Shown in pieces: positions 3,723 through 24,412 of a stretch of DNA of 64,000 nucleotides. The translations under genes and the position numbers were made by a program. The first letter of the stretch is position 1, and every line of letters starts with the position of its first letter. Below the pieces are notes generated by a model, which was not told the DNA's origin, searched no databases, and saw only the letters and a program-made list of their open reading frames with translations. Origin of the DNA: Spirochaetia bacterium (lineage in GTDB: Bacteria > Spirochaetota > Spirochaetia > CADAEX01); contig JAFXTY010000050.1 in the NCBI GenBank assembly GCA_017535435.1, forward strand, positions 5,211 through 69,210, read 5' to 3'.

Positions 3723-3744
3723 GAATAATCGTTCTTGTTGTTTC

Positions 3745-4294: not shown

Positions 4295-4334
4295 ATTACC
4301 ACCATATTAAGTATATAATATGTGTGTAATGTGG

Positions 4335-6609: not shown

Positions 6610-6906
6610 TCAGTTGGATTTTTCCTGCATCTTCTCTTTTTCTTTCACAATCTTGGTCTTAACTTTTTCTGTAAGCTGGTCTATTGCATCATAGAGATCT
6701 CCGTTTGTGGTCTCGATATAGGCATCACCGCCCCATTTGAATGCGAAGTTGCTCTTCAGGGTGTACATGCCGTTTGCCCGCTCAACAGTGATCTCCAGGA
6801 ATGTCAGTGTGTCCTCTGCTGTTGCAAGACGCTTGAACTTCTTCTCAATCTGTTCCTTGGTCTTGTCAGAAACTTCATAATGGATTCCTCTGATTTCAAA
6901 ATTCAT
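6610..6906 (-). CDS. hpf: ribosome hibernation promoting factor (short HPF/RaiA form)
   Basis: 98 aa. Sigma-54-modulation-protein fold (MNFEIRG.HYEV...). Downstream of rpoN as in many bacteria. Confidence 0.85.
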   Translation of the reverse strand: MNFEIRGIHYEVSDKTKEQIEKKFKRLATAEDTLTFLEITVERANGMYTLKSNFAFKWGGDAYIETTNGDLYDAIDQLTEKVKTKIVKEKEKMQEKSN

Positions 6907-7069
6907 ACTTGCCTCCTGATTATTGATTTATATTTTGAAACTGTACGTCTGGCCATGTCGATTCCTCTCTCCTTGAGTATATCAGATATCTGCTGGTCGG
7001 AGAGATGTTTATCTTTGTTTGTCTCTAGAATTTCTTTTATGATTTCCAGCACGCTTTCCCCTGGGATGG
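6903..7069 (-). other. rpoN: C-terminal part of rpoN (HTH plus RpoN box) encoded in an alternate frame
   Basis: Frame B reads ...GESVLEIIKEILETNKDKHLSDQQISDILKERGIDMARRTVSKYKS, i.e. the sigma-54 C-terminal HTH and the RpoN-box ARRTVxKYR. It lies out of frame with the upstream 386-aa ORF. Confidence 0.7.
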
Positions 7070-8197: not shown

Positions 8198-8284
8198 ATC
8201 TATATTATACCCTAAAAAACAGAATTTGGCAAAAAAGTTTCTGCTATTGCGAAAAAGCTATAATCAATATATAATTATATAATT

Positions 8285-9148
8285 ATGAAACAATATCTTG
8301 ATTTAGTGAAATATGTGCTTGAGAACGGCCAGCGGAAAGTGAACCGGACTGGAGTAGCCACCTTGAGCTGTTTTGGAGTGTTCTATAAGGTGAATCTGGC
8401 AGAGGGGTATCCTCTCCTTACCACCAAGAAAGTTTATTTCAAATCCATGCTCCAGGAGCTTTTCTGGTATCTTTCCGGGGAGGAGCATATCCGGAACCTC
8501 CGCCAGCATACCAAGATATGGGATGCCTGGGCAGACGAGGAGGGACATCTGGAGACAGCATACGGCCGGTTCTGGCGGCGGTTCCCGGTGCCGGAGCAGG
8601 GGCTCCCGGGGGAGAAATGGGCCACAAAGTGGGTTACCACCGACCCTGTTACAGGACAGAAGACCTTTGACCAGATCCAGTACATCATCGATTCACTTAA
8701 AGAGATCAAGAAGAACCCGGAGTCCCCGGCCCTGCGGAGGCTGGTGGTAAGCGCCTGGCATCCGGCAAATGCGGCGGAAAGCCTGCTGCCTCCATGCCAT
8801 TACAGCTTCTGCTTCAACGTGACAGGCGGCAAGCTGAACTGCCATCTTACCCAGCGTTCTGCAGACATTGCCCTGGGTGTTCCTTTCAACATCGCATGCT
8901 ACGCTCTCCTTACCATGATGCTGGCAAAAGAGACCGGATTTGAGGTGGGCGAGTTCGCCCATACCCTTATAGATGCCCATATCTATGAGAACCATATAGA
9001 CGGCCTTAAGGAGCAGCTGACCCGGACCCCAGGCAAACTTCCTACAGTTAAGATTGCGGACAAGCCGTTCAACGAGCTGACTCCGGACGATATCGAACTT
9101 ATCGGCTATGAGCCTCAGGGTTTTATTAAATTTGGAGTTGCGGTTTAA
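8285..9148 (+). CDS. thyA: thymidylate synthase
   Basis: 287 aa. ThyA signatures (MKQYLDL..., active-site region ...LPPCH.) and correct length. Confidence 0.9.
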   Translation: MKQYLDLVKYVLENGQRKVNRTGVATLSCFGVFYKVNLAEGYPLLTTKKVYFKSMLQELFWYLSGEEHIRNLRQHTKIWDAWADEEGHLETAYGRFWRRFPVPEQGLPGEKWATKWVTTDPVTGQKTFDQIQYIIDSLKEIKKNPESPALRRLVVSAWHPANAAESLLPPCHYSFCFNVTGGKLNCHLTQRSADIALGVPFNIACYALLTMMLAKETGFEVGEFAHTLIDAHIYENHIDGLKEQLTRTPGKLPTVKIADKPFNELTPDDIELIGYEPQGFIKFGVAV

Positions 9149-9151
9149 GCC

Positions 9152-9628
9152 ATGAAAGAGATAAATGTCATTGTGGCAATGACAAAGAGCCGTGTGATCG
9201 GCAAGGATGGCGCACTCCCCTGGCACCTGAGCGAGGACCTTAAGCTGTTCAAAGCCCATACCACCGGCAATATAGTGATCATGGGGCGCAAGACCTTTGA
9301 TTCCATCGGCAGGCCCCTGCCCAACCGGCGGAACATTGTGGTGTCCAAAAGCATCCGGGAGGACGAGAAGGTAAGCGGCGTGGAGTATTTCCCGGACCTG
9401 GATCATGCTGTTGCATCAGCCCAGGAGGGAGACGGCCGCATCTTCATCATCGGAGGGGCCAGCATATATCACCAGATGATAGAAAAGGCTGACCGGCTTT
9501 ATATTTCAATGGTGGATGGAGAATTTGAAGGGGACACTTATTTCCCCGAAATCAGGGATGATGTGTGGAAGGTGGTGGCCACCGAGCCTCACGCTGGATT
9601 TACACTGAAAATATACGAGAGAAAATAA
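9152..9628 (+). CDS. folA: dihydrofolate reductase
   Basis: 158 aa. INVIVAM...IGKDG.LPWHL and IMGRKTFDSIGRPLPNRRNIV motifs. 3 nt after thyA. Confidence 0.9.
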   Translation: MKEINVIVAMTKSRVIGKDGALPWHLSEDLKLFKAHTTGNIVIMGRKTFDSIGRPLPNRRNIVVSKSIREDEKVSGVEYFPDLDHAVASAQEGDGRIFIIGGASIYHQMIEKADRLYISMVDGEFEGDTYFPEIRDDVWKVVATEPHAGFTLKIYERK

Positions 9629-9642
9629 TTGGAGAGTTGACC

Positions 9643-9918
9643 ATGGACATGGACGAATTGAAGCTTGAGATCAAGAAGATCATTATTTCATCATTGGAGC
9701 TTGAGGATGTAAAGCCTGAGAACATTGTGGACTCGGAGCCTCTTTTCGGAGCAGGTCTGGGACTTGATTCCATAGATGCGCTGGAGCTGGGAATTGCCCT
9801 TAAGAAACGTTTCGGTATCTCATTCTCGGCAGAGAGCAGCGACAACAGAAAGCATTTTGCATCGGTGGATGCACTTGCAGCATATATTTCAGCTCAGAAA
9901 AATGGAGAGGCAAAATGA
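9643..9918 (+). CDS. acyl carrier protein, APE-cluster type
   Basis: Start moved to ATG 9643 with GGAGAG RBS. The ORF-track N-terminal extension overlaps folA. LGLDSIDALEL phosphopantetheine-attachment motif. Confidence 0.85.
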   Translation: MDMDELKLEIKKIIISSLELEDVKPENIVDSEPLFGAGLGLDSIDALELGIALKKRFGISFSAESSDNRKHFASVDALAAYISAQKNGEAK

Positions 9919-10163
9919 CAAAAGAGGAAATTTTCGACAAGCTTAAAGAAATCTTCATCAGCGAATTTGAGCTGGATGAGTCAAAGATAACCATGGATGC
10001 CCTGGTGTTTGAGGATCTGGATCTGGACAGCATCGATGCAGTGGACATCATTGTAAAGATGAAGCGGTTCCTCCCTGCCAAGATCAACCCTGATTCCTTC
10101 AGAAAGGTCCGCACTGTAGGGGATGTGGTTGATGTTCTGTACGAGGCATCAAAGGCAAAATAA
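9915..10163 (+). CDS. acyl carrier protein, second copy
   Basis: 82 aa. DLDLDSIDAVDI motif. 4-nt overlap with the preceding ACP gene. Confidence 0.85.
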   Translation: MTKEEIFDKLKEIFISEFELDESKITMDALVFEDLDLDSIDAVDIIVKMKRFLPAKINPDSFRKVRTVGDVVDVLYEASKAK

Positions 10164-12314
10164 GTGGCTTGGACCCATAAGCAGATAAAGGCTGCCGTCT
10201 GCATCGGGTTTCTGGTGTGCGGCGGTATTATTGCCATTATCACCCGCTCTGCAAGGATTCTGACTTTCTACCCGGCGCTGGTGAACCTGTTCTTTCTGGT
10301 GCTATTCGGGCATACTTTATTTGCAGGTCCCAGCATGGTATATCGGCTTGCTACCCTTAAGGACAAGAGCATTGCCATAAGCCCTTATAGAAAAAAGATT
10401 GCAGCATACTGCCGGAATGTGACTCTGGTATGGTGCTGTTTTTTTATTGTGAACGGCAGTATAGCCCTGATGTCTGTGTTTGGAGATTCCTACCGGTTCT
10501 GGGCATTATATAACGGATGTATAGCCTACATCCTCATGGGACTTTTATTTTCAGGGGAGTATATTGTGCGTAAAGTTGTGCAGAAGAATATGAAAGGGGA
10601 TTTTATCCCTCTGACCCAGGTTAAGCTGAATTCCAGGGATATGGATTCTATTGTCTGCTATGAGGGAAGATATACAGATGGTGTTTTCAAGAGGTGGAGG
10701 GATTTTGCAGAAGACTGCACCAAGATGCGCCATTTCCTCTTGTCCCAGAATGTGGATAAGTGGATTTTGAACTGCGAGGACTGCTACTATTTCTATGTCA
10801 CTTTTGCCTCCCTGCTGCAGTGCAGGAAAGAGATTCTCCTTACAGCCAACATCACTCCTGAATTCATAAAAGAGATCCGGCTTCCCGGCATCGGTTTCCT
10901 TACCGACCAGAAGGCTCCGGATTCCACCGATATTGCTGCCATCATTGAGCAGCCTTCAATGGGAACCGAGGAGTTTCCCCCTATTGTTGCCTCGGAAACC
11001 AAGATTCATATGTATACATCAGGCAGCACCGGCCACCCGAAGGCAGTGCTCCAGCGGATGAAAGAGTTTGAGCTGGACAATGCCTTCATCATGTCCAAAT
11101 GGGGTGATGATTTCTATAAGCGCATAGTGTGCTCCTGCGTGAACCAGCACCATATCTACGGGCTTCTGTTCTCTGTGGTGCTTCCTTTTGCTGCCGGCGT
11201 TCCATTCCGCAGGAACCGTATCACTGTTCCTGCGGAGTTCAAGAGCCTTACCGACACCTCATATATGATTATCGCTGTTCCCGCGTTCCTTAAGAGGACA
11301 GTGGAGGATGAGACAGAATCCTTCGGCCTTAAGAGCCCTGTCATCTTCACATCTGGTGGCGTGCTCACCCCTGACGTGGCTAAGAAGACAGACCAGATCA
11401 TGGGATTCTGGCCTATCGAGGTATATGGAAGCACCGAGACCTCCGGCATTGCATACCGCCAGTCCAAGAACGGCCTTGAGTGGACACCCTTCGACAACGC
11501 CGAGATTTCACAGAATGCCGATGGCTGCCTGATTATCCGCTCTCCATACATAAGCGATCCGGCCGGCTTTGAGACTGCTGACCTGGTGGAGATTTTCCCC
11601 GACGGCCGTTTCCTGCTCAAGGGGCGTTCCGATTCTATTGTAAAAATCGAAGAGAAGCGTATCTCTGTGACTGAGGTGGAGAACCGCCTTAACCAGAACC
11701 CATATGTGAAGGACAGCTGTGTTATCGCAATGGCAGACCGGAGGCAGTACCTGGCGGCAGCCGTTGTTCTATCCCCTGCCGGCGTGGAGAAGTTTGCCGG
11801 CGCTGATAAATTTGATATCAACCAGTACTTCAGAAATTATCTGGCAGGCTTCTTCGAGGCTGTGGTGCTGCCCCGGAAATGGCGTTATCTGGATGCAATC
11901 CCCCAGAATGCCATGGGCAAGCGGAAAAAGGATGATATAAAGGCTCTCTTTGAGAAGAAGATAGAGGATATCCACGGCATCTCCTTTGAAATAAAGGAGC
12001 AGGAGGAGAATAAGGTTGTTGTTGCCTTTGTCGCTCCAGAGAACTGTGACTTCTACGACGGCCATTTTCCGGAGAAGAAATTTCTGCCGGCCGTAGCCCA
12101 GTTCCACATTGCGGTCAAGGTGGCAGAGCAATACTTTAAAGTTGAGATTCCACTGGTGGAGACCAAGAGAATCAAGTTCTCCCATCCTATTCAGCCTGAT
12201 ACCCCTATGCTCCTGACTATAACTAATGATGGAGACAAGCTGCAGTTTACCTATAACGACGAGGCTGGAAGGGAGCATTCAAGAGGCACCTTCCTTGCAA
12301 AGGAGCGGCAGTGA
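10164..12314 (+). CDS. tri-domain fusion: 4-TM membrane domain, AMP-dependent adenylating ligase, and C-terminal FabA/FabZ-like hotdog dehydratase
   Basis: 716 aa with GTG start directly after the ACP stop. Residues 1-150 are hydrophobic helices. Adenylation cores are YTSGSTGHPKAV, YGSTETSG and GR.DS.VKI. The C-terminus FYDGHFPEKKFLPAVAQFHIAV resembles the FabZ HFPG..VMPGVL active-site region. Confidence 0.75.
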   Translation: MAWTHKQIKAAVCIGFLVCGGIIAIITRSARILTFYPALVNLFFLVLFGHTLFAGPSMVYRLATLKDKSIAISPYRKKIAAYCRNVTLVWCCFFIVNGSIALMSVFGDSYRFWALYNGCIAYILMGLLFSGEYIVRKVVQKNMKGDFIPLTQVKLNSRDMDSIVCYEGRYTDGVFKRWRDFAEDCTKMRHFLLSQNVDKWILNCEDCYYFYVTFASLLQCRKEILLTANITPEFIKEIRLPGIGFLTDQKAPDSTDIAAIIEQPSMGTEEFPPIVASETKIHMYTSGSTGHPKAVLQRMKEFELDNAFIMSKWGDDFYKRIVCSCVNQHHIYGLLFSVVLPFAAGVPFRRNRITVPAEFKSLTDTSYMIIAVPAFLKRTVEDETESFGLKSPVIFTSGGVLTPDVAKKTDQIMGFWPIEVYGSTETSGIAYRQSKNGLEWTPFDNAEISQNADGCLIIRSPYISDPAGFETADLVEIFPDGRFLLKGRSDSIVKIEEKRISVTEVENRLNQNPYVKDSCVIAMADRRQYLAAAVVLSPAGVEKFAGADKFDINQYFRNYLAGFFEAVVLPRKWRYLDAIPQNAMGKRKKDDIKALFEKKIEDIHGISFEIKEQEENKVVVAFVAPENCDFYDGHFPEKKFLPAVAQFHIAVKVAEQYFKVEIPLVETKRIKFSHPIQPDTPMLLTITNDGDKLQFTYNDEAGREHSRGTFLAKERQ

Positions 12315-13057
12315 GCGAGTTCGCACCAGGGGCTGTGATCCCGGTCTACAACCATGGCAGCACCGCAGAGCCCATAGTTGATTTCCTTGTCTCACACCGC
12401 ATCCCTGTTGTCCTGGTGGATGACGGCAGCTACCTCAAGAGCAAGGCTGCCCTGGCCAAGATAGAGAAAAAATACCCTGATGATGTGACCCTGCTTACCC
12501 TTCCCGAGAACCAGGGCAAAGGGGCTGCGGTGATGATCGGCATAGAGATGGCGGCAAACCTGGGCATGACCCATGTGCTTCAGATTGATGCAGACGGACA
12601 GCACGATATCAACAGGGTAATGCCTTTCTTTGAGCTTTCAAGGAAGCACCCGGAAGCCCTGATATGCGGTTACCCGGAATATGACGAGACGGTGCCTAAG
12701 AACCGGCTGACAGGGCGGAAGATCACCAATACCATGATAGCAATCGAGACTCTGGGCAGCGGCATACGGGACGGAATGTGCGGCTTCCGGGTCTATCCTG
12801 TGGAGTCCACTCTTAAAATACGTAAGAAGCTGGCGTTTCCCCGCATGGGCTTTGACATAGATATTCTGGTAAAGCTTTACTGGTCCGGTGTCCCTGTCAT
12901 AGACAGCCCTGTCAAAGTGACGTACCCGGAGGGTGGAACTTCCAATTTCCGCATGGTGCACGACAACATAGAAATAAGCATGGTTCATACCCGCCTTTTC
13001 TTCGGAATGCTGTTCAGGCTTCCCAAGCTGATTGCCCTGAGGAAGCTCAATGGCTGA
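12311..13057 (+). CDS. family 2 glycosyltransferase
   Basis: 248 aa. VVLVDDGS and DADGQHD (D.D.H) motifs of GT-A/GT2. Confidence 0.75.
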   Translation: MSEFAPGAVIPVYNHGSTAEPIVDFLVSHRIPVVLVDDGSYLKSKAALAKIEKKYPDDVTLLTLPENQGKGAAVMIGIEMAANLGMTHVLQIDADGQHDINRVMPFFELSRKHPEALICGYPEYDETVPKNRLTGRKITNTMIAIETLGSGIRDGMCGFRVYPVESTLKIRKKLAFPRMGFDIDILVKLYWSGVPVIDSPVKVTYPEGGTSNFRMVHDNIEISMVHTRLFFGMLFRLPKLIALRKLNG

Positions 13058-13994
13058 GAAAGAGCACTGGTCAAAGCAGCATGAGAAAGGAAAGCTCTGG
13101 ATGCGGAAATTCACACTGGCCTGCATCAGGATACTTCCTGGAATAGTTGTACGTATTCTTGCTATCCCGATAGGCTTTTTCTTCTGGCTCATCTCGGGGC
13201 CGGAGCGGAAGGCGATTATAAAATATCTTAAGAAAGTAAGGCCCGACAGAAAGCCCTATACGCTGCCCCTGTTCCTCGCCTTTTCCATCACTATCATAGA
13301 GAAGGTGGAGTCCTGGGCCGGCAAGATAAGGCTGGGCAAGATACATTTCCAAGATGATGATATAAATACAATCTGGAAGGAACTGGAGCAGGGCAAAGGA
13401 GCGCTTCTTGTCTGCTCTCACCTGGGCAACATGGAGATGCTCCGGGCTATTGCAGACTTCGGCGATATCGGGGTTTCCCGCAGGGTTCCTGTGATTTCCA
13501 TCGTGGACTTCAAGGTGACAGCTGGGTTCAACAAGATGATAGAAGATGCCAACAGCAGTTCTATGCACAACATAATCAGCGCCTATGACATTGGTCCTGA
13601 TACTATGCTTATGCTGCAGGAGCATGTTGCCAAGGGCGGCATAGTAGTTATAGCCGGTGACAGGAATACAGAGGGAAAACTGGACAGAAATTTTGACATC
13701 GATTTTCTGGGGTCTTCCGCCCATTTTCCTCAGGGGCCTTTTATCATTGCGTCCCTTCTGGAGTGTCCGACCTACTTTGTCTTTGCCGTCAGGCAGAAGC
13801 CTCTCTCTGTTTCGGCAGAATACAATATGCACATTCATAAGACAAGGGTGAAGTTTTCCGGCAGCAGGGCAGAGAAGAAGCAGCAGATACGGCAGATGGC
13901 CGAGGAATTTGTCTCCTATCTGGAGAAATATTGTAACAAATATCCCCTTCAGTGGTATAATTTTTATGAATACTGGGAAAAAGGTGAATTATGA
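13050..13994 (+). CDS. LpxL/HtrB-like lysophospholipid acyltransferase
   Basis: 314 aa. N-terminal TM segment and an acyltransferase-like core (LLVCSHLGNMEML). Position matches the LpxL-like acyltransferase of APE clusters. Confidence 0.6.
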   Translation: MAEKEHWSKQHEKGKLWMRKFTLACIRILPGIVVRILAIPIGFFFWLISGPERKAIIKYLKKVRPDRKPYTLPLFLAFSITIIEKVESWAGKIRLGKIHFQDDDINTIWKELEQGKGALLVCSHLGNMEMLRAIADFGDIGVSRRVPVISIVDFKVTAGFNKMIEDANSSSMHNIISAYDIGPDTMLMLQEHVAKGGIVVIAGDRNTEGKLDRNFDIDFLGSSAHFPQGPFIIASLLECPTYFVFAVRQKPLSVSAEYNMHIHKTRVKFSGSRAEKKQQIRQMAEEFVSYLEKYCNKYPLQWYNFYEYWEKGEL

Positions 13995-14401
13995 GTATTG
14001 AAACATCAGTTGAGTTTAAAGTGGAATTTTATGACGTGGATGCCATGGGAGTGGTATGGCACGGCAACTATGTGAAATACATGGAGCTGGGGCGGTGTGC
14101 CCTTCTTGATAAGATAGGCTATGGCTACAACGAGATGAAGGAGAGCAATTATGCTTTTCCGGTAGCCTCCCTCAAGCTTAAGTATATAAAGCCGCTGATG
14201 TTCAAGCAGACTGCAGTCATAAAGGCAGTTCTTACCGAATATGAGAACCGGATCAAGATAGAGTATTTCATCTATGATAAAGAATCGGGAGAACTGGTCA
14301 CCAAGGGAGAGAGCATCCAGATGGCTCTGAATATGAAGACCCTGACAACCTCTTTCCAATGCCCGGAATGCTTTATCAAGAAGGTTGAAGCTCTGTTATG
14401 A
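13991..14401 (+). CDS. 4HBT/YbgC-family acyl-CoA/ACP thioesterase (hotdog)
   Basis: 136 aa. FKVEFYDVDAMGVVWHGNYVKYME is the 4HBT active-site region. Confidence 0.75.
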   Translation: MSIETSVEFKVEFYDVDAMGVVWHGNYVKYMELGRCALLDKIGYGYNEMKESNYAFPVASLKLKYIKPLMFKQTAVIKAVLTEYENRIKIEYFIYDKESGELVTKGESIQMALNMKTLTTSFQCPECFIKKVEALL

Positions 14402-15000
14402 GAAAAATTCTGTTATTCCTTATTCTGTTTCTCGCTTTCACAAGCCTGCTGGCCGCTGATCAGCTGGAGGAGGTCTATTCCAGGATCTCGAGCCATCCGG
14501 TGACCAAGGGAGAACTCACCCAGGAGCAGTATATCAAGATGGCAAACCGCAGTCTCATTTCCAAAGGGACTTTTGTCATGGCTTCCGATAATGGAGTCAT
14601 CTTTGAGATCATCGATCCTTTCCCATCCTCTTTGGTTGTGACCCCGGAGAAGATGGTGCAGACCCTGCCCGGCGATGTGGTTTCTGTCATGGACGGTAAA
14701 GATAATGCCATGTTCAGCAATATTGCAAAGATAATCCATTCTGTCTTTGCAAATGATGTGCAGGTGCTCAAGGACAACTTCCAGGTCTCTGTGACCGGGG
14801 GGCCCAAGGATGTGGTCACACTGATTCCAAAGGATCCTCTTCTATCCATGCTTTTTCAGAAAATCACTCTGGCCGTGGGTGATTCCATAGATTCTGTCTC
14901 TATAATCGAGACAGGTGGCAACTGGGTGAACTATACTTTTTTCAATAAAACTTTTCCGGAGAAGCTGACTGAAGATGAAAGGCAGCGGCTGGCCAATTAG
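14398..15000 (+). CDS. LolA-like outer-membrane lipoprotein carrier family protein
   Basis: 200 aa with signal peptide. Size and position (between the thioesterase and the MMPL exporter) match the LolA-like component of APE clusters. Sequence similarity judged only by eye. Confidence 0.5.
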   Translation: MRKILLFLILFLAFTSLLAADQLEEVYSRISSHPVTKGELTQEQYIKMANRSLISKGTFVMASDNGVIFEIIDPFPSSLVVTPEKMVQTLPGDVVSVMDGKDNAMFSNIAKIIHSVFANDVQVLKDNFQVSVTGGPKDVVTLIPKDPLLSMLFQKITLAVGDSIDSVSIIETGGNWVNYTFFNKTFPEKLTEDERQRLAN

Positions 15001-17200
15001 GCGGATCCTTTTCCTCTGTGGGGTGGCTGCAGCCTTTATTGCCGCTCTGTGCCGGGGGATAAACCTGGATACCAGCTTTTTCTCTATCTTCCCGGAGTAC
15101 AGCTCATTGTCGGAGGTAGAGAAAAAAATATCCCAGAACACATCCTCATCTGTCTATATCTTTGCAGAAAGCTCTGATTTTGATACCGCAAAGAGGGGAG
15201 CCGAAGCTTTCTATGATGCATTTATAGACTCCGATATTTTCAGAAGTCTGGTGATGTATCAGGATGCAGATTCCTTCGATGAGGTAAAGACTTTTCTCTT
15301 TGAACACAGATATCAGCTTATTGATGATGATACCCTTGCCCTTCTGGATGCGGGAAAGGCAGATGCTGTTGCAAAGGGAGCCCTTTCCCAGGTTTACAGT
15401 CCCTTCTCCTTTGCCGATTTAAGCCATCTGGATAAAGACCCGTTCCTTCTGACAGAAAAAAATATGAAAAAGTATGCATCTCTGGGAGCGGGCAATATGT
15501 TCATGAAGGAGGGATGCCTTGCGGCCAAGTCTGCAGGAAAGTGGTATGTGATGATAAGGGGTACAGTGACCGATTCTTCCCTCTCCTTCTCCAAAAAAAA
15601 TGGAATAGGAAAAGTATATGAGCAGATAAAAATCCTGGAGCAGGAAAATCCGGAGATTGCCTATATCTGTTCGGGCGTTCCTTTCCATAGCTATGAGAGT
15701 TCTTCCAAGGCCATGAAGGAGATTTCTTGGATAACAGGAATATCCCTGACGCTGGTAGCTCTTATTATTTTTGTTGCATTCCGTTCTTTGGTCCCCATGC
15801 TTATTTCTCTGGCCAATATTACAGTATCGCTGATGTTCGGCCTGGCTGTGGCTCTGATTTTCTATGGTAAAATAAATGCCCTTGCACTGGTTTTCGGAAC
15901 CACCCTTATAGGAGTCAGCATCGACTATTCTATACACTGGTTTGTAAACCGGGAGAGATTATTCCGAAGCCTTGCAGTGAACTGCCTTTCTACCGAGGTG
16001 AGCTGGTGCCTGCTGATGCTGGCTCCATTCCCGCTTCTGCGGCAGATTGCTCTGTTCTCGGCAGCAGGCCTCCTGTGCTCCTATCTGACAGTGCGGCTTA
16101 TTTATCCCCTGTGTCCTGCTGCAGAGGGCTGTTCTGCCGAGGCTGGAGATAAAGCAGGACAGGGGTCTGGGGGACACCTTGCCCGGACTGCCGGGATACT
16201 GGTTATAGCTCTCTGTCTTATAGCCTCTGCTGCCTCAGGCATAAGAATAAAAAACAATATCAGGGGAATGTATACAATGTCGGATCACCTGCTGGAGTGG
16301 GAAAAGAAGGCTTCCGGCATACTTGGCCTGGGCAGCAGCGGTCAGTACTTTATCGTAGCCGGCCGTGGCCCTCAGGAACTGCTGGGCCGGGAGGAGCAGC
16401 TGACAGCCGCCTTGGAAAAGGAGAAGAAGGCTGGCGCCCTGGGTGGCTATGCCGCCATCACCAACTATGTCCCTTCCATGGCGCGCCAGGCCAGGAGCTA
16501 CCAGGCGGCTTCCCTGCTTCTCCAGCGCTCCCAGGCGCAGCTGAAAGCTCTTGGTTTCGGGAGCGCTGCGGCCGCTCCGTTTGAGCTTGATTACAGGAAC
16601 AGCGCGGGCAAGGTGGTGTCCTTGAATACAACTCCCTCCTTCCTGCAGGAGAGCATCGACACCCTCTACCTGGGAAAAGTCGGTGACACATATTACTCCG
16701 TGGTGTTCCCTCTGCAGGTCAAGGACAGCGAAGCCCTTAAAAGCCTTGCCGACGGAAATCATATTTTCTTCATGTCTAAAATCAAGGATATAGAACAAGA
16801 GCTGGATCACCTTACCAAGATAGCTTTATGCTTTATTCTGGCCTCTTATCTGCTGGTGTTCCCGCTCCTGTTTGTTGTATATAAGAAAAAGGCCCTGGGG
16901 ATTGCACTGGTTCCTGTAGCTGTGATTCTTGGTTCCCTTGCCTTTGTATCCTCCACCGGAGGAGTGGACCTCTTTGCCTGTTCAGGCATCGTCCTTATAT
17001 TCGGCCTTGGTCTGGATTATCTTGTATATGGTCTTGAGAAAAAGTCTGGAAAAGCCACACTCCTTTCCTTCATCACCACAGAGCTTTCCTTCGGCGCTTT
17101 GGCATTAAGCAGCTTTGTCCCTGCCCATGTGTTCGGTCTTACTGTCTGTGCGGGATTGGCTTTAGCTTATCTTCTCTCCTGCTTGATTAACCGCAGTTAA
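14975..17200 (+). CDS. MMPL/RND-superfamily exporter
   Basis: 741 aa. Two 6-TM bundles, each preceded by a periplasmic loop. GxS.DYS.H-type motif (GVSIDYSIHW) typical of MMPL/SSD proteins. Confidence 0.8.
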   Translation: MKGSGWPIRRILFLCGVAAAFIAALCRGINLDTSFFSIFPEYSSLSEVEKKISQNTSSSVYIFAESSDFDTAKRGAEAFYDAFIDSDIFRSLVMYQDADSFDEVKTFLFEHRYQLIDDDTLALLDAGKADAVAKGALSQVYSPFSFADLSHLDKDPFLLTEKNMKKYASLGAGNMFMKEGCLAAKSAGKWYVMIRGTVTDSSLSFSKKNGIGKVYEQIKILEQENPEIAYICSGVPFHSYESSSKAMKEISWITGISLTLVALIIFVAFRSLVPMLISLANITVSLMFGLAVALIFYGKINALALVFGTTLIGVSIDYSIHWFVNRERLFRSLAVNCLSTEVSWCLLMLAPFPLLRQIALFSAAGLLCSYLTVRLIYPLCPAAEGCSAEAGDKAGQGSGGHLARTAGILVIALCLIASAASGIRIKNNIRGMYTMSDHLLEWEKKASGILGLGSSGQYFIVAGRGPQELLGREEQLTAALEKEKKAGALGGYAAITNYVPSMARQARSYQAASLLLQRSQAQLKALGFGSAAAAPFELDYRNSAGKVVSLNTTPSFLQESIDTLYLGKVGDTYYSVVFPLQVKDSEALKSLADGNHIFFMSKIKDIEQELDHLTKIALCFILASYLLVFPLLFVVYKKKALGIALVPVAVILGSLAFVSSTGGVDLFACSGIVLIFGLGLDYLVYGLEKKSGKATLLSFITTELSFGALALSSFVPAHVFGLTVCAGLALAYLLSCLINRS

Positions 17201-17782
17201 GGTGAAATCGGGGAGATCATTGTATTTCTTGATGATCAGGTTATCTCTGTCTGTCTTACGTTCAAAGGCTGTGGCCATAACATAGCCGCCCCCCTCATAC
17301 ATCGAGTAGAAAAGGCTGCTCTGGCAGAGAATTCTACTTCCGCTTATGGAGAAGGAGGGGGTCTCCCTTACTGCTCCGACAGTGGTTCCCAGCAGCTTTA
17401 TATGAGCCTCCTTGAGCACCCACAGCATCATAAAACGTCTCTGTTTCTCTTGGGGATTTCCAGCCTCTTCCAAGAAGGCTTTCTCCTCTGGATGAAAAAA
17501 CTTCTCCGCTATGGCAATGGAAACTTTTCTGTCAGAGCGCTCGATATCGCATCCTGTCTTTCCTTCTGACATTGTACAGATCACCAGATTCTTGGCATGG
17601 GAGATGTTGAAATCCACATTGCAATCGGTATACTCCGGCCTCCCTGCCTGGGTTATGTGCCGTTCCGGGTGGCTGCCTATCAGCTCTTCTTCCATAAGGG
17701 AAAGGAGCTCAAGCCCTTTTGTGTGCTGCTCCTTATAAATGTGAGATTCTGATGATAAAATGCCCAGTCTGCTTTCCATCAA
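17162..17782 (-). CDS. Sfp-type 4'-phosphopantetheinyl transferase
   Basis: 206 aa. FNISHA, GCDIE and WVLKEAHIKLLG motifs (PPTase motifs 1-3). Antisense to the cluster. Its 3' end overlaps the MMPL gene end by 39 nt. Confidence 0.7.
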   Translation of the reverse strand: MMESRLGILSSESHIYKEQHTKGLELLSLMEEELIGSHPERHITQAGRPEYTDCNVDFNISHAKNLVICTMSEGKTGCDIERSDRKVSIAIAEKFFHPEEKAFLEEAGNPQEKQRRFMMLWVLKEAHIKLLGTTVGAVRETPSFSISGSRILCQSSLFYSMYEGGGYVMATAFERKTDRDNLIIKKYNDLPDFTLTAVNQAGEKIS

Positions 17783-17842
17783 TGCAAGTATATAGCTTTT
17801 TTTACTGGAAAGGAAGTCAATTAACTGTTATTATATAATATT

Positions 17843-18415
17843 ATGAAGGTTGCTCTTAAGCTTCTGACCGTTCTAATGATCTCCATCCTCCTCTTCTCCT
17901 GTGTCACCAGACGGGAGAATGATGCCAGATATTCGGTATATGTTACAAACGAGGCAAAATTCGAGCTTCTGCCCCCTTCAGCCTTCCAGGAGAACATGGA
18001 CCGGTTCCAGAACATAACCGGCTATTTCCAGAATAAAGTGCACATCTTCGGAGCCTATATCAAGAGCGATGACGAGAGGGTGGCAATCACCTTCTTCAAC
18101 CAGATGGGAGGTAGCGTGGGAGATCTGCTTTACACAGGGGATTCCCTTCAGGCCGATTCACATTTCACCCCTCCTGGGGCAAAATTTGAATATATGATGG
18201 CAGACTTCCAGTTCTGCTACTGCAAAAAGGAACTCCTTGCCGAAAGCCTTGAGGCTGTGGGACTCCGTTTCGGGTGCACTGAGCAGGATGGAAAGGAGAT
18301 CCGGCAGATATGGGATAAGGACCAGCTGGTAATCCAGGTGGAAAAAGAGAAAAACCATACCAGTCTCCAGAATTTCCTGCGGCAGTACAGATACGATATC
18401 CAGGAGGGAACCTGA
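17843..18415 (+). CDS. putative lipoprotein
   Basis: 190 aa. Lipobox LLFSC. Sits where APE clusters carry a small lipoprotein. Confidence 0.5.
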   Translation: MKVALKLLTVLMISILLFSCVTRRENDARYSVYVTNEAKFELLPPSAFQENMDRFQNITGYFQNKVHIFGAYIKSDDERVAITFFNQMGGSVGDLLYTGDSLQADSHFTPPGAKFEYMMADFQFCYCKKELLAESLEAVGLRFGCTEQDGKEIRQIWDKDQLVIQVEKEKNHTSLQNFLRQYRYDIQEGT

Positions 18416-19521
18416 TGGCTGTCTATCTTTCTTCCCCGGGTGTTGCATGCTGTGCCGGAAGCGGACTTGCAGCCCTGCATGATGCAGTTTTGGAAAGGAA
18501 GCCATGGCATAAGACTGACCTTGCAATGGAAGCTCTTATGGATGATGCCCTGTCTCAGATCAAGGATGCCGTGGCCTTGGCTGTAAATCGTTATGGAAAC
18601 AGCCGTATAGGAGTTTTTGTAGGCTCCTGCGACAACGGCACTTCCTATTCCCTGCCGGCACACAAGCAGTTCTTTGAAACCGGCTCATTTCCTGCTGGCT
18701 ACTCATTCTCATACCAGAAGGCAGATTATCCCGCCGCATATATTCAGAAAAAACTGGGGCTCCGTGGCTTTGCCGCCGCCTGTGCCACCGCCTGCGCCTC
18801 CAGTGCCAGCGCTATAATCAAGGCATGCCAGCTTATAAAGGCAGGTTTCTGCGATGCAGCTGTTGCAGGGGGTGTGGATATAGCCTCCAGGATTGTCCTT
18901 TCCGGCTTTGGGGCACTGGAGGCAGTTTCCCCAGGTCTTACCAATCCTTTCAGTAAGAACAGGGACGGTATTTCCCTTGGAGATGGAGCCGCATTCTTTG
19001 TCATTGCCCGGGAAGACCTGTGGGAAACAGGCATACAGCTTCTGGGCTGGGGTGAAAGCTCCGATGCCCATCACATTACTGCTCCCGAGGCCAGCGGCGC
19101 ACAGGCGGCTGCCGCAATAAAGAAGGCATTGGACAGCGCCGGGCTTAAGCCGACTGATATCGATTACATAAACCTTCATGGAACCGGAACCAAGCTGAAC
19201 GATCTTATGGAAAGCCGGGCCGTGGCCAGTAACTTTGGATCGGGGATGCCTCCTGTAAGCTCCACAAAGCCGGTCACTGGCCACACCCTGGGGGCGGCTG
19301 GGGCTCTTGAGCTTGCAATCTGCTGTTCCCTCATCACTGCCGGCGACGGCAAGCTTCCTCCCCAGCTCTGGGACGGAGAAAAAGATGAAGAGCTGGAACC
19401 TCTTAACTTTGCAGAAAAAGAAAAAACATATAAAGGCATCCGCACCTGCATGAGCAACACCTTCGGCTTCGGCGGCTGCAATGTGAGCCTGATAATTGGA
19501 GAGAAAGATGAAGGCCATTGA
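18415..19521 (+). CDS. beta-ketoacyl-ACP synthase (KS)
   Basis: 368 aa. Thiolase-fold KS with the active-site Cys region (ACATACASSAS) and His/His region (NLHGTGT..., GHTLGAAG). Confidence 0.85.
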   Translation: MAVYLSSPGVACCAGSGLAALHDAVLERKPWHKTDLAMEALMDDALSQIKDAVALAVNRYGNSRIGVFVGSCDNGTSYSLPAHKQFFETGSFPAGYSFSYQKADYPAAYIQKKLGLRGFAAACATACASSASAIIKACQLIKAGFCDAAVAGGVDIASRIVLSGFGALEAVSPGLTNPFSKNRDGISLGDGAAFFVIAREDLWETGIQLLGWGESSDAHHITAPEASGAQAAAAIKKALDSAGLKPTDIDYINLHGTGTKLNDLMESRAVASNFGSGMPPVSSTKPVTGHTLGAAGALELAICCSLITAGDGKLPPQLWDGEKDEELEPLNFAEKEKTYKGIRTCMSNTFGFGGCNVSLIIGEKDEGH

Positions 19522-19966
19522 GAAAGATGAACTTATAAACCTGCTTCCTCACAAGGGAAGGATGTTCCTCCTGGACCGTGCGGTGGATGTGGATTATGAG
19601 GATTATTCCATAAAGACCCAGGTGGATGTGACAAAGAATTCCATGTTCTATGACGAGGGGCTGGGAGGGATTCCTTCTTACATAACCTTTGAATATATGG
19701 CTCAGAGCATCTCTGCCCTTTCTGGCTTTGCCAACAGGCGCAAGGGATTGCCTCCGAAGGTGGGAGTCATCCTCAGTGTCTCTGACTTCAAAACCTTTGT
19801 TCCTGTGCTTGAGGCGGGAACAACTGTCACAGTCGCAGATTACCATCAGGCTGTGGTGGACCGGGTCTTCTCTTTCAACTGCACAGCCCATGTGGGTGAC
19901 ACTCTTGTGGCATCCGGCAAGCTTACAGTGATGGACATTGATGATCTGAGCGAATTGGGTATATGA
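19496..19966 (+). CDS. FabA/FabZ-like 3-hydroxyacyl-ACP dehydratase
   Basis: 156 aa. LPHKGRMFLLDR matches the FabZ LPHRYPFLLVDR region. Confidence 0.75.
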   Translation: MERKMKAIEKDELINLLPHKGRMFLLDRAVDVDYEDYSIKTQVDVTKNSMFYDEGLGGIPSYITFEYMAQSISALSGFANRRKGLPPKVGVILSVSDFKTFVPVLEAGTTVTVADYHQAVVDRVFSFNCTAHVGDTLVASGKLTVMDIDDLSELGI

Positions 19967-19983
19967 TGAAGGAAGGAGCTTTT

Positions 19984-20709
19984 ATGGATAAAAAGAAAGT
20001 GCTTGTGACCGGGGCTGGCCGGGGTATTGGCCGCGCCATTGCCTTGGCCTGTGCAAAGGCAGGATATGAGGTTATTGCCCATTACAATAAAAGCAGCCGG
20101 CCGGCAGCTGAGCTGAAATCTGAGATTGAAGCAGGCGGCGGTGTATGCCGGCTTATCCAGTTTGATATCTCTGACCGGGCCGACTGCCGCAGGAAACTTG
20201 AGGCTCTATGGGAAGAGCAGGGGCCGCTGTGGGGCATTGTGTGCAATGCTGGAATCTGCTCCGACAACACCTTTGTGGCTCTGTCTGACAATCAGTGGGA
20301 TTCTGTCATCAACACCAACCTGAACGGTTTCTTCAATGTCCTTTCTCCGCTTGTAATGCCTATGTGCCGCAAGAAAAAGGGACGCATAGTGACAATAGCC
20401 TCTGCCTCCGGCATCATAGGAAACCGGGGTCAGGTCAACTACAGCGCCTCCAAGGCCGGGATCATAGGTGCCACCAAGGCTCTTGCAACCGAACTTGCCA
20501 GCCGTTCCATCACCGTGAACTGCGTGGCTCCGGGGGTAATTGAGACAGATATGATAGGGGAGGTTCCCGAGGACAAGGTTCTGCCTGCCATCCCTATGGG
20601 GAGATTCGGAAAACCTGAGGAAGTGGCTCCTGTTGTAGTATTCCTCCTCTCTGAGGAAGCATCTTACATAACACGGCAGGTTATTTCTGTAAACGGTGGT
20701 CTATTATGA
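19984..20709 (+). CDS. 3-oxoacyl-ACP reductase (SDR)
   Basis: Start at ATG 19984 with GGAAGGAG RBS. TGAGRGIGRAIA Rossmann motif and YSASKAG catalytic Tyr-x3-Lys. Confidence 0.85.
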   Translation: MDKKKVLVTGAGRGIGRAIALACAKAGYEVIAHYNKSSRPAAELKSEIEAGGGVCRLIQFDISDRADCRRKLEALWEEQGPLWGIVCNAGICSDNTFVALSDNQWDSVINTNLNGFFNVLSPLVMPMCRKKKGRIVTIASASGIIGNRGQVNYSASKAGIIGATKALATELASRSITVNCVAPGVIETDMIGEVPEDKVLPAIPMGRFGKPEEVAPVVVFLLSEEASYITRQVISVNGGLL

Positions 20710-21929
20710 ACAGAAGAGTTGTGGTAACTGGCGGAAGCGTAATCTCTGCCCTGGGAAATGAATGGAACGAGATTTTTGCAAACCTGAAGCAGAAGAAGAA
20801 CAAAATCAAATATATGCCTGAATGGGAGAGGTACCAGGGGATGAACACCCGTCTGGCCTGTCCTGTGGATTTTAAGGCTCCCGATTTCCCCCGGAAAAAA
20901 ACCAGGGGCATGGGACGCATTGCCCTTATGGCTGTGACCAGTGCAGATAATGCTCTTAAGGATGCAGGCCTTCATGAAAGCCCGGAGCTCAAGGCTGGAC
21001 GATGTGGAGTCTCCTACGGTTCCTCTGCCGGCAGCATCGACTCCCTCCTGGACTTCTACTCCATGCTTATAACAGACACTGCAAACAAGATAAGCGCCAC
21101 CACCTACATAAAGATGATGCCCCAGACCTGCGCTGCCAACATCAGTGTCTTCTATGGCCTTACCGGCCGTCTTATAACCACCAATACGGCCTGCACATCA
21201 GGCAGCATGTCCATAGGATATGCCTTCGAAAGCATAAGAAACGGACAGCAGGACATAATGCTTGCCGGCGGTGCCGAGGAGCTTTCCCCCGCCGATTCTG
21301 CTGTGTTTGACGTGCTCTTTGCTGCCAGCGGGTTGAATGATAAACCAGAGCTGACCCCAAAGGCCTACGATAAGAATCGGGACGGACTGGTGATCGGCGA
21401 AGGTTCGGGAACCCTCATCCTTGAGGAATATGAGCATGCTGTGGCAAGAGGTGCCAAGATTTATGCCGAGATGGTGGGCTTTGGAACAAACACCGACGGT
21501 ACACATATAACCCAGCCCAACAAGACCACTATGCGCCGGGCCATGGAACTGGCCCTGGAAAGCGCAGGTCTTACCCCCGACAGGATAGGCTATGTGAATA
21601 CCCACGGCACCGCGACTCTGGCCGGCGATGTGGCAGAAAGCCATGCTACCTACGAGGTGTTCGGAGGTAAAGTACCAGTCAGCACAATCAAGAACTATAT
21701 CGGGCACACCCTGGGCGCCTGCGGCGTCATTGAGGCATGGACATCAATCAATATGATGAGGGAGGGGTGGCTTGCCCCGAACATTAATCTGACCGAGGTG
21801 GATCCAGAATGCGCTCCGCTTGATTACATAATGGGCGATGGAAGGGAGACCAAAGTGGACTACATAATGTCCAACAACTTCGCCTTCGGAGGAATCAACA
21901 CATCTCTTATTTTCAAGAGGTTATCATGA
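20706..21929 (+). CDS. beta-ketoacyl-ACP synthase II-like (KS)
   Basis: 407 aa. TACTSG active-site Cys, HGTAT and GHTLGACG His motifs. ATGA-type overlap with the KR gene. Confidence 0.85.
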   Translation: MNRRVVVTGGSVISALGNEWNEIFANLKQKKNKIKYMPEWERYQGMNTRLACPVDFKAPDFPRKKTRGMGRIALMAVTSADNALKDAGLHESPELKAGRCGVSYGSSAGSIDSLLDFYSMLITDTANKISATTYIKMMPQTCAANISVFYGLTGRLITTNTACTSGSMSIGYAFESIRNGQQDIMLAGGAEELSPADSAVFDVLFAASGLNDKPELTPKAYDKNRDGLVIGEGSGTLILEEYEHAVARGAKIYAEMVGFGTNTDGTHITQPNKTTMRRAMELALESAGLTPDRIGYVNTHGTATLAGDVAESHATYEVFGGKVPVSTIKNYIGHTLGACGVIEAWTSINMMREGWLAPNINLTEVDPECAPLDYIMGDGRETKVDYIMSNNFAFGGINTSLIFKRLS

Positions 21930-23008
21930 TGGATTACTATTCTGACAAGATGAGGGCAATAGATGCCAAGACCAAGGCCCAGGAAATTGCCTTTGCCCCT
22001 CTGGCCTTCCAGACAGTGCTGGCACTGCGGAACCTGGGGATGCTGAAGAGTATCAACGATTCAGGGGATGCGGGGCTTACAGCTGAAGCAGTTGCCGAGA
22101 AGGCAGTAGTCTCTCTCTACGGAGCAAAAGTTCTTCTGGAATTTGCCCTGGGAATGGGGGTGGTCAAACTGGTTCCCGAAATCAAGGAAGAGCGGTATGT
22201 CCTGTCAAAGACAGGCTGGTTCCTTCTTGAGGATGATATGACCCGGGTCAACATGGACTTTGTGAACGATATCTGCTACAAAGGGGCTTTCAATCTCACA
22301 GAATCTGTAAAAAACGGAAAGCCGGAGGGACTGGCTGTATTCGGGAAATGGACAACAATCTATGAGGCTCTTTCCACCCTGCCGGAACAGGCCAAGAAAA
22401 GCTGGTTCGCCTTTGACCATTTCTATTCCGACATCGCCTTCCCCGAGGCGCTGCCCATAGTATTTGCCCAGAAGCCGAAGAAACTGCTTGATATCGGCGG
22501 CAATACTGCCAAATGGAGCATCTGCTGCTGCAAGTATAATCCAGATGTGAAGGTGACCATAGTGGATCTGCCGGGCCAGACCGCAGTAGCCCGGGAGAAT
22601 GCGGCAAAGGCTGGATTCGGTGACAGAATCGATACCTGCGAGGGGAATATCCTTGCCGATTCCACAGTATTGCCAAAGGGCTATGATGCAGTGTGGATGA
22701 GCCAGTTCCTGGACTGCTTCTCCTTGAAGCAGGTTACCAAGATCATTAAGAAAGTAGTGTCTGCTGCAGGGAATAATACTGATATTTTTGTGCTGGAGCC
22801 CTTGTGGGACTGCCAGAAGTTCCAGGCCTCATCCTACTCCCTCCAGGCCACATCCATATACTTTACCTGCATGGCCAATGGAAACAGCAAGATGTACCGC
22901 TGTCAGGAGCTGTTAGATGCCATAGAGGCCGGCGGTGCCAAGCTGGAGACAGCCCACCATAACCTGGGCTCCAACAGTTATTCGCTCCTCCGGTTCAGGA
23001 AAAAATAA
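21926..23008 (+). CDS. SAM-dependent O-methyltransferase (class I, with dimerisation domain)
   Basis: 360 aa. LLDIGGNTAKWS (motif I, GxGxG-like) and a downstream acidic residue. Confidence 0.75.
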   Translation: MMDYYSDKMRAIDAKTKAQEIAFAPLAFQTVLALRNLGMLKSINDSGDAGLTAEAVAEKAVVSLYGAKVLLEFALGMGVVKLVPEIKEERYVLSKTGWFLLEDDMTRVNMDFVNDICYKGAFNLTESVKNGKPEGLAVFGKWTTIYEALSTLPEQAKKSWFAFDHFYSDIAFPEALPIVFAQKPKKLLDIGGNTAKWSICCCKYNPDVKVTIVDLPGQTAVARENAAKAGFGDRIDTCEGNILADSTVLPKGYDAVWMSQFLDCFSLKQVTKIIKKVVSAAGNNTDIFVLEPLWDCQKFQASSYSLQATSIYFTCMANGNSKMYRCQELLDAIEAGGAKLETAHHNLGSNSYSLLRFRKK

Positions 23009-23652
23009 TGGAGCTTTATATCAACCGATGGGCCTTTTGGGCACCGCCTTGCGACAACCAAGCCGCCTCGCCGCCCCTGGACTATGTCCCGCCTCTATTA
23101 AAGCGCAGACTCAGCCAGCTGACCAGGATGACCATAGAGGTTGTGCACCAGGTGCTGGATGCAGCCCCTGAAAGCGGCCTGGTCTTTGTCTCGTCGGGCG
23201 GCGAGTCGGCCCGGCAGCTGCAGGTTGACAGGATGCTTATCGAGGATGGCGGCATACTGCCGGCTCCCTTCTCCCTGTCAGTCTTCAACGCCTCTCCAGC
23301 CATGGCTACCATAGCCCTGGGTATGAAGGGAGGCTACACCGCACTGTTCCCGGCTCAGAACCTTTTCCAGGAGGGACTTGTATACGGAGCTGCCCCTGTC
23401 ATGGCTGGAGAGACAGAATCTGCGATTCTGGTGTTTGCCGACCAGCAGCTGCCGGCCGAGTATATGGCCATTGCCTCCCCGGAGGACATAATTCCACCCT
23501 ATGTAGCCTCCTTCGTCCTCTCTTCTGTAAAACAGCCCGGCGGTATGGCAATAACTTTGAATCCCGAAGCTGCCTGCATCGGTGAAGCAGTTCCTTACTC
23601 ATCCCTGGAGGAACTTATAACCATGCTCAAGGGGGAGGCTTCCAGTGTCTAA
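23008..23652 (+). CDS. KS-N-terminal-like / chain-length-factor-like protein lacking the catalytic Cys
   Basis: 214 aa. Position and size match the CLF-like partner of APE KS enzymes. Low-complexity Ala/Pro-rich region. Weak similarity judged by eye. Confidence 0.5.
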   Translation: MELYINRWAFWAPPCDNQAASPPLDYVPPLLKRRLSQLTRMTIEVVHQVLDAAPESGLVFVSSGGESARQLQVDRMLIEDGGILPAPFSLSVFNASPAMATIALGMKGGYTALFPAQNLFQEGLVYGAAPVMAGETESAILVFADQQLPAEYMAIASPEDIIPPYVASFVLSSVKQPGGMAITLNPEAACIGEAVPYSSLEELITMLKGEASSV

Positions 23653-24412
23653 GCTTCTCCTCTGGTACCGTATTTTTGTGAAGCTCTTCCTATTCTTTGT
23701 CTTTGGAGTCGGCAGCCTTGTCCTCATAACCGCAGTGTTTCCTACAATCCGCCTTTTATCGGCATCAAATCAGGCCTTCAAGCGGAAATCCAGGAAGGCT
23801 ATGTGCAATACCCAGAAGTTCTTTGTATGGCTTGGAACACTGATGGGGGGCTTTGAGCTGAAGGTGGATGACAAGGAATATTTAAGCCATCTTTCCGGCA
23901 AGATAGTAGTGGCAAACCATCCGTCGCTGCTGGATGTGGTTATGCTCCTTTCTGTGATTCCCAATGCCGACTGCATAATCAAAGCATCCTTGGGACACCA
24001 TAACATTGTAAGCAACATAGTGAACACCCTCTATATTTCCAACTCTCTGGATTTTGACCACCTGACAAAGGAATGCACCAAATCGCTCCAGGAAGGCAAC
24101 TGTCTGATCATTTTCCCGGAAGGAAGCCGTACCAAAGCCGACGGAGTCCACCACTTCCAGCGGGGAGCTGCCCATATCGCCCTGTCATCAGGATGCAGCC
24201 TGATTCCGGTGTGTATCGGCGGTACTGATAAATATGGGCTTAGAAAACATGATCCGATGCTCTCCTATAATCCTAAGGAGAAATTCATCTATACACTCAA
24301 GACTCTTCCCGAGGTGAATCCTGCTGATTATGCAGATATTCCGGTTCCGGCAGCGGCTCGGAGAATCACAGAGAAGATTAAATCTGACATAGAGACTGAG
24401 CTGAATCGTTGA
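23645..24412 (+). CDS. 1-acyl-sn-glycerol-3-phosphate acyltransferase (PlsC-like)
   Basis: 255 aa. N-terminal TM segment. VVANHPSLLDVV (H.4D acyltransferase motif I) and FPEGSRT (motif III). Confidence 0.7.
   Translation: MSKLLLWYRIFVKLFLFFVFGVGSLVLITAVFPTIRLLSASNQAFKRKSRKAMCNTQKFFVWLGTLMGGFELKVDDKEYLSHLSGKIVVANHPSLLDVVMLLSVIPNADCIIKASLGHHNIVSNIVNTLYISNSLDFDHLTKECTKSLQEGNCLIIFPEGSRTKADGVHHFQRGAAHIALSSGCSLIPVCIGGTDKYGLRKHDPMLSYNPKEKFIYTLKTLPEVNPADYADIPVPAAARRITEKIKSDIETELNR

Follow-up and report, generated by a model that had tools for sequence, protein, structure and literature searches.

A probable aryl polyene lipid cluster of the Escherichia coli and Xenorhabdus type in an uncultured rumen spirochaete

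Aryl polyene (APE) clusters, which specify yellow pigment lipids of the membrane, are among the most widespread biosynthetic clusters in bacteria, and their characterised products come solely from Proteobacteria and Bacteroidota. The closest described systems are the APE_Ec cluster of Escherichia coli CFT073 (apeA-R, c1204-c1186) and the ape cluster of Xenorhabdus doucetiae. Both species use 4-hydroxybenzoate from primary metabolism (chorismate lyase) as the starter, and the E. coli cluster depends on an unlinked phosphopantetheinyl transferase, AcpT (PMC8253772). Methyl groups are added to the ring by ApeB, giving 4-hydroxy-3-methyl- or 3,5-dimethylphenyl head groups, and deletion of apeB in Xenorhabdus leads to desmethyl products (bioRxiv 10.1101/2020.12.19.423268). 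For spirochaetes, antiSMASH surveys have listed arylpolyene clusters in Treponema_D sp900541945 (PMC8863827, PMC10904984) and "numerous" such clusters in rumen Spirochaetota (PMC9177762). Here, we describe a cluster of this type at positions 9643-24412 of a 64,000-nucleotide stretch (hereafter the window; contig JAFXTY010000050.1, positions 5,211 to 69,210) from assembly GCA_017535435.1, a metagenome-assembled genome (MAG) named "Spirochaetia bacterium" at NCBI. An earlier note, made from the sequence without database searches, had proposed a complete APE-type cluster in a spirochaete-like genome.

Gene content, order and intactness of the cluster

We compared the products of the 17 genes (Table 1) by protein BLAST to the ape locus taken from a complete E. 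coli genome. The best match was the E. coli Ape counterpart for 15 of the 17 products, with identities of 25-58%, and collinearity with the E. coli locus was kept apart from the permutation of a single block. The NCBIfam models matched by the E. coli Ape proteins were those matched by the window proteins, and the scores were similar; among them are NF006617 and NF003757 for the two acyl carrier proteins (ACPs), which ApeE and ApeF match as well. In searches of the PDB, the first ketosynthase (KS) and the chain-length factor had their best matches in the two chains of 6QSP, and the two dehydratase units in the two chains of 6QSR. We take these entries to be the Xenorhabdus doucetiae complexes ApeO:ApeC and ApeI:ApeP, respectively, which we recognised from search output that gave generic molecule names. 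The one-to-one homology to E. coli ape, the structural matches and the shared family models bear out the earlier assignment to the APE type. All 16 plus-strand open reading frames (ORFs) of the earlier list were found where it had placed them and with the Pfam and NCBIfam domains it had named, and the E. coli order E-F-G-H-I-J-K-L-M-N-O-P-Q-R is retained, with the B-C-D block shifted to the end.

The core set for calling an ape cluster, as defined by Grammbitter et al. (apeO, R, E, F, C, I, P, Q and M; bioRxiv 10.1101/2020.12.19.423268), is complete. As in the APE family generally, two ketosynthases, a chain-length factor, two ACPs, two dehydratases and a 3-ketoacyl-ACP reductase (KR) occur together without an enoyl reductase, alongside an export set of the ApeM, ApeL and ApeN types and lipid-anchoring enzymes of the ApeD and ApeJ types. 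No enoyl reductase domain was recovered among the 17 products in the Pfam and NCBIfam scans. The Cys-His-His motifs are legible in the ApeO-type ketosynthase, and the ApeC-type chain-length factor is its predicted partner. The fusion protein consists of an ApeG-like membrane segment (residues ~1-140, 37% identity), an ApeH-like ligase (~148-600, 29%) and an ApeI-like dehydratase (~610-716, 27%); its membrane N-terminus obtained no Pfam or NCBIfam assignment and is linked to ApeG via BLAST. The ApeI-type domain has its best PDB match in 6QSR_A, scores 24.8 bits on PF22818 (below the cutoff of 28.5) and retains the GHF motif with the catalytic His. In the ApeP-type dehydratase, a Gly occupies the position of the His in Xenorhabdus ApeP, where E. 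coli ApeP has Asn. Since E. coli ApeP likewise lacks the His and the ApeI domain keeps GHF, the Gly lies within the family range, and the idea that this dehydratase is defective was dropped. The DUF3261 protein begins with MKVALKLLTVLMISILLFSC, within which the LFSC lipobox is located. No counterpart of ApeA was identified in the window by pairwise BLAST or phmmer.

The genes are tightly packed, with 14 of the 15 same-strand junctions overlapping or abutting (overlaps of 1, 4, 8, 14 or 26 nt and one 0-nt gap), seven of them as 4-nt overlaps of the ATGA/GTGA type. The sole gap, 642 nt between the MMPL and DUF3261 genes, is occupied by a phosphopantetheinyl transferase gene on the minus strand, which shares 39 nt with the MMPL gene at their 3' ends. 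Between the start of the transferase gene and the DUF3261 gene lie 60 nt, and promoter-like consensus hexamers in this spacer point both ways; all matches of the consensus promoter and terminator scans were weak and non-diagnostic. The transferase gene was also called in six independent assemblies, and the consecutive NCBI accessions MBR4684110 (the fusion protein) to MBR4684127 (ArgJ) fit exactly 17 coding sequences across the cluster. With an antisense gene in the gap, the cluster consists of two translationally coupled plus-strand blocks around it, 17 genes in total, rather than of one operon. The earlier note was thus right about the tight junctions but not about a single operon, which is split by a transferase absent from its gene list.

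All ORFs of the cluster are intact, and the same genes are present in the six independent assemblies at 98.5-99.99% DNA identity. The ratio of nonsynonymous to synonymous substitution rates (dN/dS) was estimated against a relative with ~82% identical DNA (L014) and ranged from 0.03 to 0.15 for 15 genes, with a value of 0.10 for the transferase; these estimates cover 15 of the 17 genes, as the chain-length factor and the PlsC-type acyltransferase had no match in L014. Gene content, homology, order, intactness and purifying selection are established for this locus. Very probably, the rumen spirochaete, itself uncultured, has at positions 9643-24412 a functional cluster for an APE or aryl polyene lipid (APEL), of the type known from E. 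coli and Xenorhabdus.

Roles were assigned to the Ape proteins after PMC8253772 and bioRxiv 10.1101/2020.12.19.423268, and what we say of starter, chain length, anchor structure, expression and biological role is inferred by analogy. The two ACPs would be primed by the embedded phosphopantetheinyl transferase. The ApeH-like domain would then adenylate an aromatic acid, most likely 4-hydroxybenzoate, and load it onto the ApeE-type ACP, the expected holder of the aryl polyene chain. The ApeR-type ketosynthase may carry out the first extension, followed by elongation with malonyl units by the ApeO-type ketosynthase and the ApeC-type chain-length factor, the ApeQ-type reductase and the pair formed by the ApeI domain and ApeP, which without enoyl reduction would give a conjugated polyene. 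The phenol ring would be methylated by the ApeB-type enzyme. The PlsC-type acyltransferase, the GT2 glycosyltransferase and the LpxL-like acyltransferase are candidates for building a glycerophospholipid-sugar anchor and esterifying the polyene to it, and the lipid could reach the outer membrane via the RND pump, the LolA-like protein and the DUF3261 lipoprotein.

Table 1. Genes of the APE-type cluster (upper 17 rows) and of a second biosynthetic-looking group in the same window (lower four rows). Identities (id) refer to E. coli Ape proteins.
Product	Coordinates	Strand	Evidence
ACP, ApeE type	9643..9918	+	PF00550; NF006617 93.9 bits (cutoff 70); 58% id ApeE; DSIDA serine motif
ACP, ApeF type	9915..10163	+	NF003757 96.1 bits (cutoff 65); 41% id ApeF
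Membrane-ligase-dehydratase fusion, 716 aa	10164..12314	+	PF00501, PF13193, PF22818
GT2 glycosyltransferase, ApeJ N-terminal half	12311..13057	+	PF00535; 45% id ApeJ residues 5-246
LpxL-like acyltransferase, ApeJ C-terminal half	13050..13994	+	PF03279; 30% id ApeJ residues 246-554
Hot-dog (4HBT) thioesterase, ApeK type	13991..14401	+	PF13279, PF03061; 42% id ApeK
LolA-like periplasmic carrier, ApeL type	14398..15000	+	PF03548; LolA2_flexi 64 bits (cutoff 125); 27% id ApeL, full length
RND/MMPL exporter, ApeM type	14975..17200	+	weak PF03176, PF00873; 27% id ApeM over 764 positions, E 4e-50
4'-phosphopantetheinyl transferase, Sfp/AcpT type	17162..17782	-	PF01648 50.4 bits; best NCBIfam AcpT 47 bits, below cutoff
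DUF3261 lipoprotein, ApeN type (LolB-like)	17843..18415	+	PF11659 56.8 bits; LFSC lipobox
Elongating ketosynthase, ApeO type	18415..19521	+	best PDB 6QSP_A, E 1e-65; 42% id ApeO; NF006618 371 bits (cutoff 407)
Dehydratase, ApeP type	19508..19966	+	PF22817 41 bits (cutoff 27); best PDB 6QSR_B; 30% id ApeP
3-ketoacyl-ACP reductase, ApeQ type	19963..20709	+	NF004200 FabG 353 bits (cutoff 273); 53% id ApeQ
Initiating ketosynthase, ApeR type	20706..21929	+	NF006587 646 bits (cutoff 470); 54% id ApeR, full length
SAM-dependent methyltransferase, ApeB/FlxJ family	21926..23008	+	NF053543 474 bits (cutoff 560); 48% id ApeB
Chain-length factor, ApeC type	23008..23652	+	PF13723 (Ketoacyl-synt_2) 109 bits; best PDB 6QSP_B; 25% id ApeC
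PlsC-type lysophospholipid acyltransferase, ApeD type	23645..24412	+	PF01553; 34% id ApeD
MatE transporter	56158-57891	-	
NRPS-like A-T-C protein	58203-61199	-	
381-aa protein without family assignment	61196-62341	-	
Carboxynorspermidine-decarboxylase-like enzyme	62322-63482	-	nspC model 347 bits (cutoff 409)

Starter unit, head group and alternative readings

Neither the cluster nor those parts of the window that were scanned contain domains of the ammonia-lyase, DarA/DarB, chorismatase or halogenase types. The absence of an ammonia-lyase, which the earlier note had read as a sign of an imported or different starter, was confirmed, but it is not a deviation, since the E. coli and Xenorhabdus clusters also do without this enzyme. 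A search of related loci, here and below the best 80 of the 419 relatives of the fusion protein in a species-level genome collection, for additional genes that recur within the cluster or up to 3 kb from it (such as ammonia-lyase, chorismate lyase or halogenase) yielded spurious antisense ORFs and housekeeping genes of the flanks and nothing else. The extra ORFs of one Treponema locus (L016) had no informative Pfam match, except for a second LpxL-like acyltransferase. A prephenate dehydratase gene at 52811-53689 suggests that the chorismate-derived pathway to aromatic amino acids is present.

The score of the methyltransferase on NF053543 is nearly equal to that of E. coli ApeB (474 versus 472 bits). 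As the enzyme is ApeB-like, the head group is expected to be a phenol methylated on ring carbon, like that of E. coli, and to carry no methoxy group. The suggestion in the earlier note of an O-methyltransferase and a methylated, xanthomonadin- or flexirubin-like head group was not borne out, as the enzyme is 48% identical to the ring-methylating ApeB.

Several points weigh against a functional APE cluster of the E. coli type. The ligase domain is just 29% identical to E. coli ApeH, and its substrate is putative. No source of 4-hydroxybenzoate is encoded in the window or in the 80 related loci, and since ubiquinone synthesis is not expected in anaerobic treponemes, UbiC cannot be assumed as a source. 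The DUF3261 protein gave no pairwise BLAST or phmmer match to E. coli ApeN and is tied to it solely through the shared Pfam family PF11659, and several matches fall below the cutoffs of their models (371 versus 407 bits for the ApeO-type ketosynthase, 474 versus 560 for the methyltransferase and 64 versus 125 for LolA2_flexi). Spirochaete APE clusters are moreover known from genes alone. The low identity of the ligase domain and the lack of a starter-supply gene in or near the cluster and in the 80 related loci would also agree with an APE-like machinery that accepts an aliphatic or other starter and produces a polyene glycolipid without an aryl head, and the Xenorhabdus enzymes do yield a non-aryl conjugated C26:5 acyl chain as well (bioRxiv 10.1101/2020.12.19.423268). 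We regard such a product as quite unlikely, considering that the locus has kept a methyltransferase at the level of E. coli ApeB, the known substrate of which is a phenol ring, that TIGR02372 (4-coumarate-CoA ligase) is the best NCBIfam model for both this ligase domain and E. coli ApeH, and that the ApeE-type ACP is conserved at 58% identity.

A product of the flexirubin or xanthomonadin type, with the aryl polyene on a dialkylresorcinol or in a brominated and methoxylated form, is very improbable. The methyltransferase, the LolA-like protein and the reductase have the flexirubin-named models FlxJ family, LolA2_flexi and FlxB, respectively, among their best matches, but every match named after flexirubin stays under its curated cutoff, the FlxJ model gives E. 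coli ApeB the same score, and the gene-for-gene match is to the E. coli cluster; the ammonia-lyase, DarA/DarB-type, chorismatase and halogenase domains are missing from the cluster and the scanned window. Ketosynthase, reductase, dehydratase, ACP, LpxL-like and PlsC-like domains are also used in housekeeping lipid synthesis, and a generic locus for type II fatty-acid synthesis or lipid A modification that makes no polyene was the case that the earlier note had named as contrary to its proposal. It can be set aside as already refuted, with next to no probability left. Neither FabD nor FabH is encoded in the cluster, which also has no enoyl reductase, and neither ketosynthase passes the FabF model TIGR03150 (371 and 225 bits versus a cutoff of 494), whereas the ApeR model is passed with a wide excess (646 bits on NF006587, cutoff 470); the chain-length factor, the specific ApeI and ApeP dehydratase families, the collinearity with E. 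coli ape and the 6QSP and 6QSR matches point the same way.

As no endogenous source of 4-hydroxybenzoate is evident, one may speculate that gut and rumen spirochaetes feed the pathway with plant phenolic acids from their environment and that the polyene glycolipid is a regular constituent of the outer membrane whose function is not defence against oxygen radicals. We consider this idea unlikely as it stands; if true, Treponema-like bacteria would have in this cluster a pathway for an envelope lipid that is widespread and as yet uncharacterised.

Distribution in spirochaetes and genomic surroundings

The assignment to a spirochaete-type host was supported by the fusion-protein search, in which the nearest species-level genomes were ruminant MAGs labelled Spirochaetia or Spirochaetaceae. 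Four proteins from different parts of the window are identical to proteins of a single MAG with the NCBI label Spirochaetia bacterium. Within this host clade, the fusion proteins are 87-91% identical over the best segment, as compared to ~48-59% for most other matches and 61% for one Spirochaetia MAG from horse faeces. Rumen, termite gut, horse and human gut are the sources of the best 80 loci, 76 of which bear the label Treponema, Spirochaetia, Spirochaetaceae, Spirochaetales or Brevinematales. The four exceptions (L034, L041, L044 and L085) are labelled Lachnospiraceae, Anaerovoracaceae, Collinsella or "bacterium", all belong to one "cleanbin" series and have ape loci resembling those of Treponema, so that mis-binning or mislabelling of these contigs is probable. 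The related loci include L055, L070 and L082 from camel-rumen MAGs of the RUI series (PMC9177762).

The same architecture was observed in the genomes of related species. In a tblastn matrix, most of the longer loci contained several further ape genes, and some had no more than the fusion protein and both ACPs. The B-C-D block is located upstream in longer related loci, in divergent or co-directional orientation, and the antisense transferase is conserved throughout the host clade as well as in several Treponema from termite guts, among them Treponema sp. TIM-1, which is in culture and whose locus, L021, has the full set of genes. In eight related Treponema loci (L059, L062-L064, L070, L079, L081 and L083), two ACPs are accompanied by a fusion protein that matches residues ~16-599 only, without the ApeI domain, and no other ape genes were found within 10 kb; the ACP-ligase module may have been put to a different use there. 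The cluster type appears as a frequent trait of host-associated spirochaetes, here in a variant with its own transferase and a fused ApeG-H-I. The remark in the earlier note that such clusters are poorly documented in spirochaetes holds for their chemistry only and not for their occurrence, given the published surveys and the 419 relatives of the fusion protein.

The flanking hprK and rpoN genes and the LFSC lipobox, which the earlier note had used to place the host, were confirmed. In this assembly, rpoN (6903-8198, minus strand) is split into two overlapping ORFs. The difference lies at ~7062, where the C homopolymer has four bases (CCCC) as opposed to five (CCCCC) in assembly L008, which is otherwise 99.99% identical and has rpoN as a single ORF of 431 aa; the split is probably a homopolymer assembly error and possibly a real frameshift. 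Directly upstream of the first ACP gene are thyA and folA (8285-9628, plus strand), with 14 nt from the folA stop to the ACP start, and the best promoter-like site is upstream of thyA, at 8247-8275. From this spacing and the position of the site, the first block of the cluster may be co-transcribed with the thymidylate and folate genes.

A second small group of biosynthetic-looking genes is located at 56158-63482 on the minus strand (Table 1), in which the carrier domain of the protein resembling a non-ribosomal peptide synthetase (NRPS) would likewise need a phosphopantetheinyl transferase. At 48556-52833 on the plus strand, a protein of 1425 aa with two BcrAD/BadFG ATPase stretches and DUF2229 is encoded, for which the NCBI name is "activase", and its gene is overlapped by the prephenate dehydratase gene by 23 nt. 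The GC content is 0.38-0.41 at 1-4300 and 44000-46000, as compared to ~0.50 elsewhere in the window, and the first of these stretches contains ORFs without Pfam matches and a RelB/YafQ toxin-antitoxin pair (3745-4294); both stretches may have been acquired or be variable. Scanning the window for Rfam families and tRNAs recovered nothing.

Comparison with known systems

The antiSMASH arylpolyene clusters of Treponema_D sp900541945 and of rumen Spirochaetota share the phylum, the gut or rumen habitat and the predicted class with the cluster described here, and the survey reports name the class only, without gene-level description or chemistry. The host clade is distinct from Treponema by the identity of its fusion protein. 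With the flexirubin clusters of Bacteroidota, the locus shares a related methyltransferase (FlxJ family) as well as reductase, LolA-like and ketosynthase components, but it has no tyrosine ammonia-lyase or dialkylresorcinol genes, and the flexirubin-specific models all scored below cutoff.

In comparison with APE_Ec and the X. doucetiae ape cluster, 17 of the 18 ape functions are present. Overlapping stops and starts are found in these clusters as they are here, and ammonia-lyase and enoyl reductase are likewise absent. In contrast to E. coli, ApeG, ApeH and ApeI form a single protein of 716 aa, ApeJ is divided into two genes (the GT2 glycosyltransferase and the LpxL-like acyltransferase), apeB-C-D follow apeR rather than precede apeE, and the ApeA lipoprotein is absent. 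An antisense phosphopantetheinyl transferase gene is located between apeM and apeN, whereas the E. coli cluster contains none. Also, the cluster described here is directly downstream of thyA-folA, among housekeeping genes and not in a genomic island. These findings are of use for annotation and for deciding which cultured carrier to study chemically, Treponema sp. TIM-1 and T. brennaborense being examples, and they leave the understanding of how APE clusters work unchanged. The cluster is of a known type whose occurrence in the phylum is not new, and it is slightly rearranged relative to its E. coli and Xenorhabdus counterparts.

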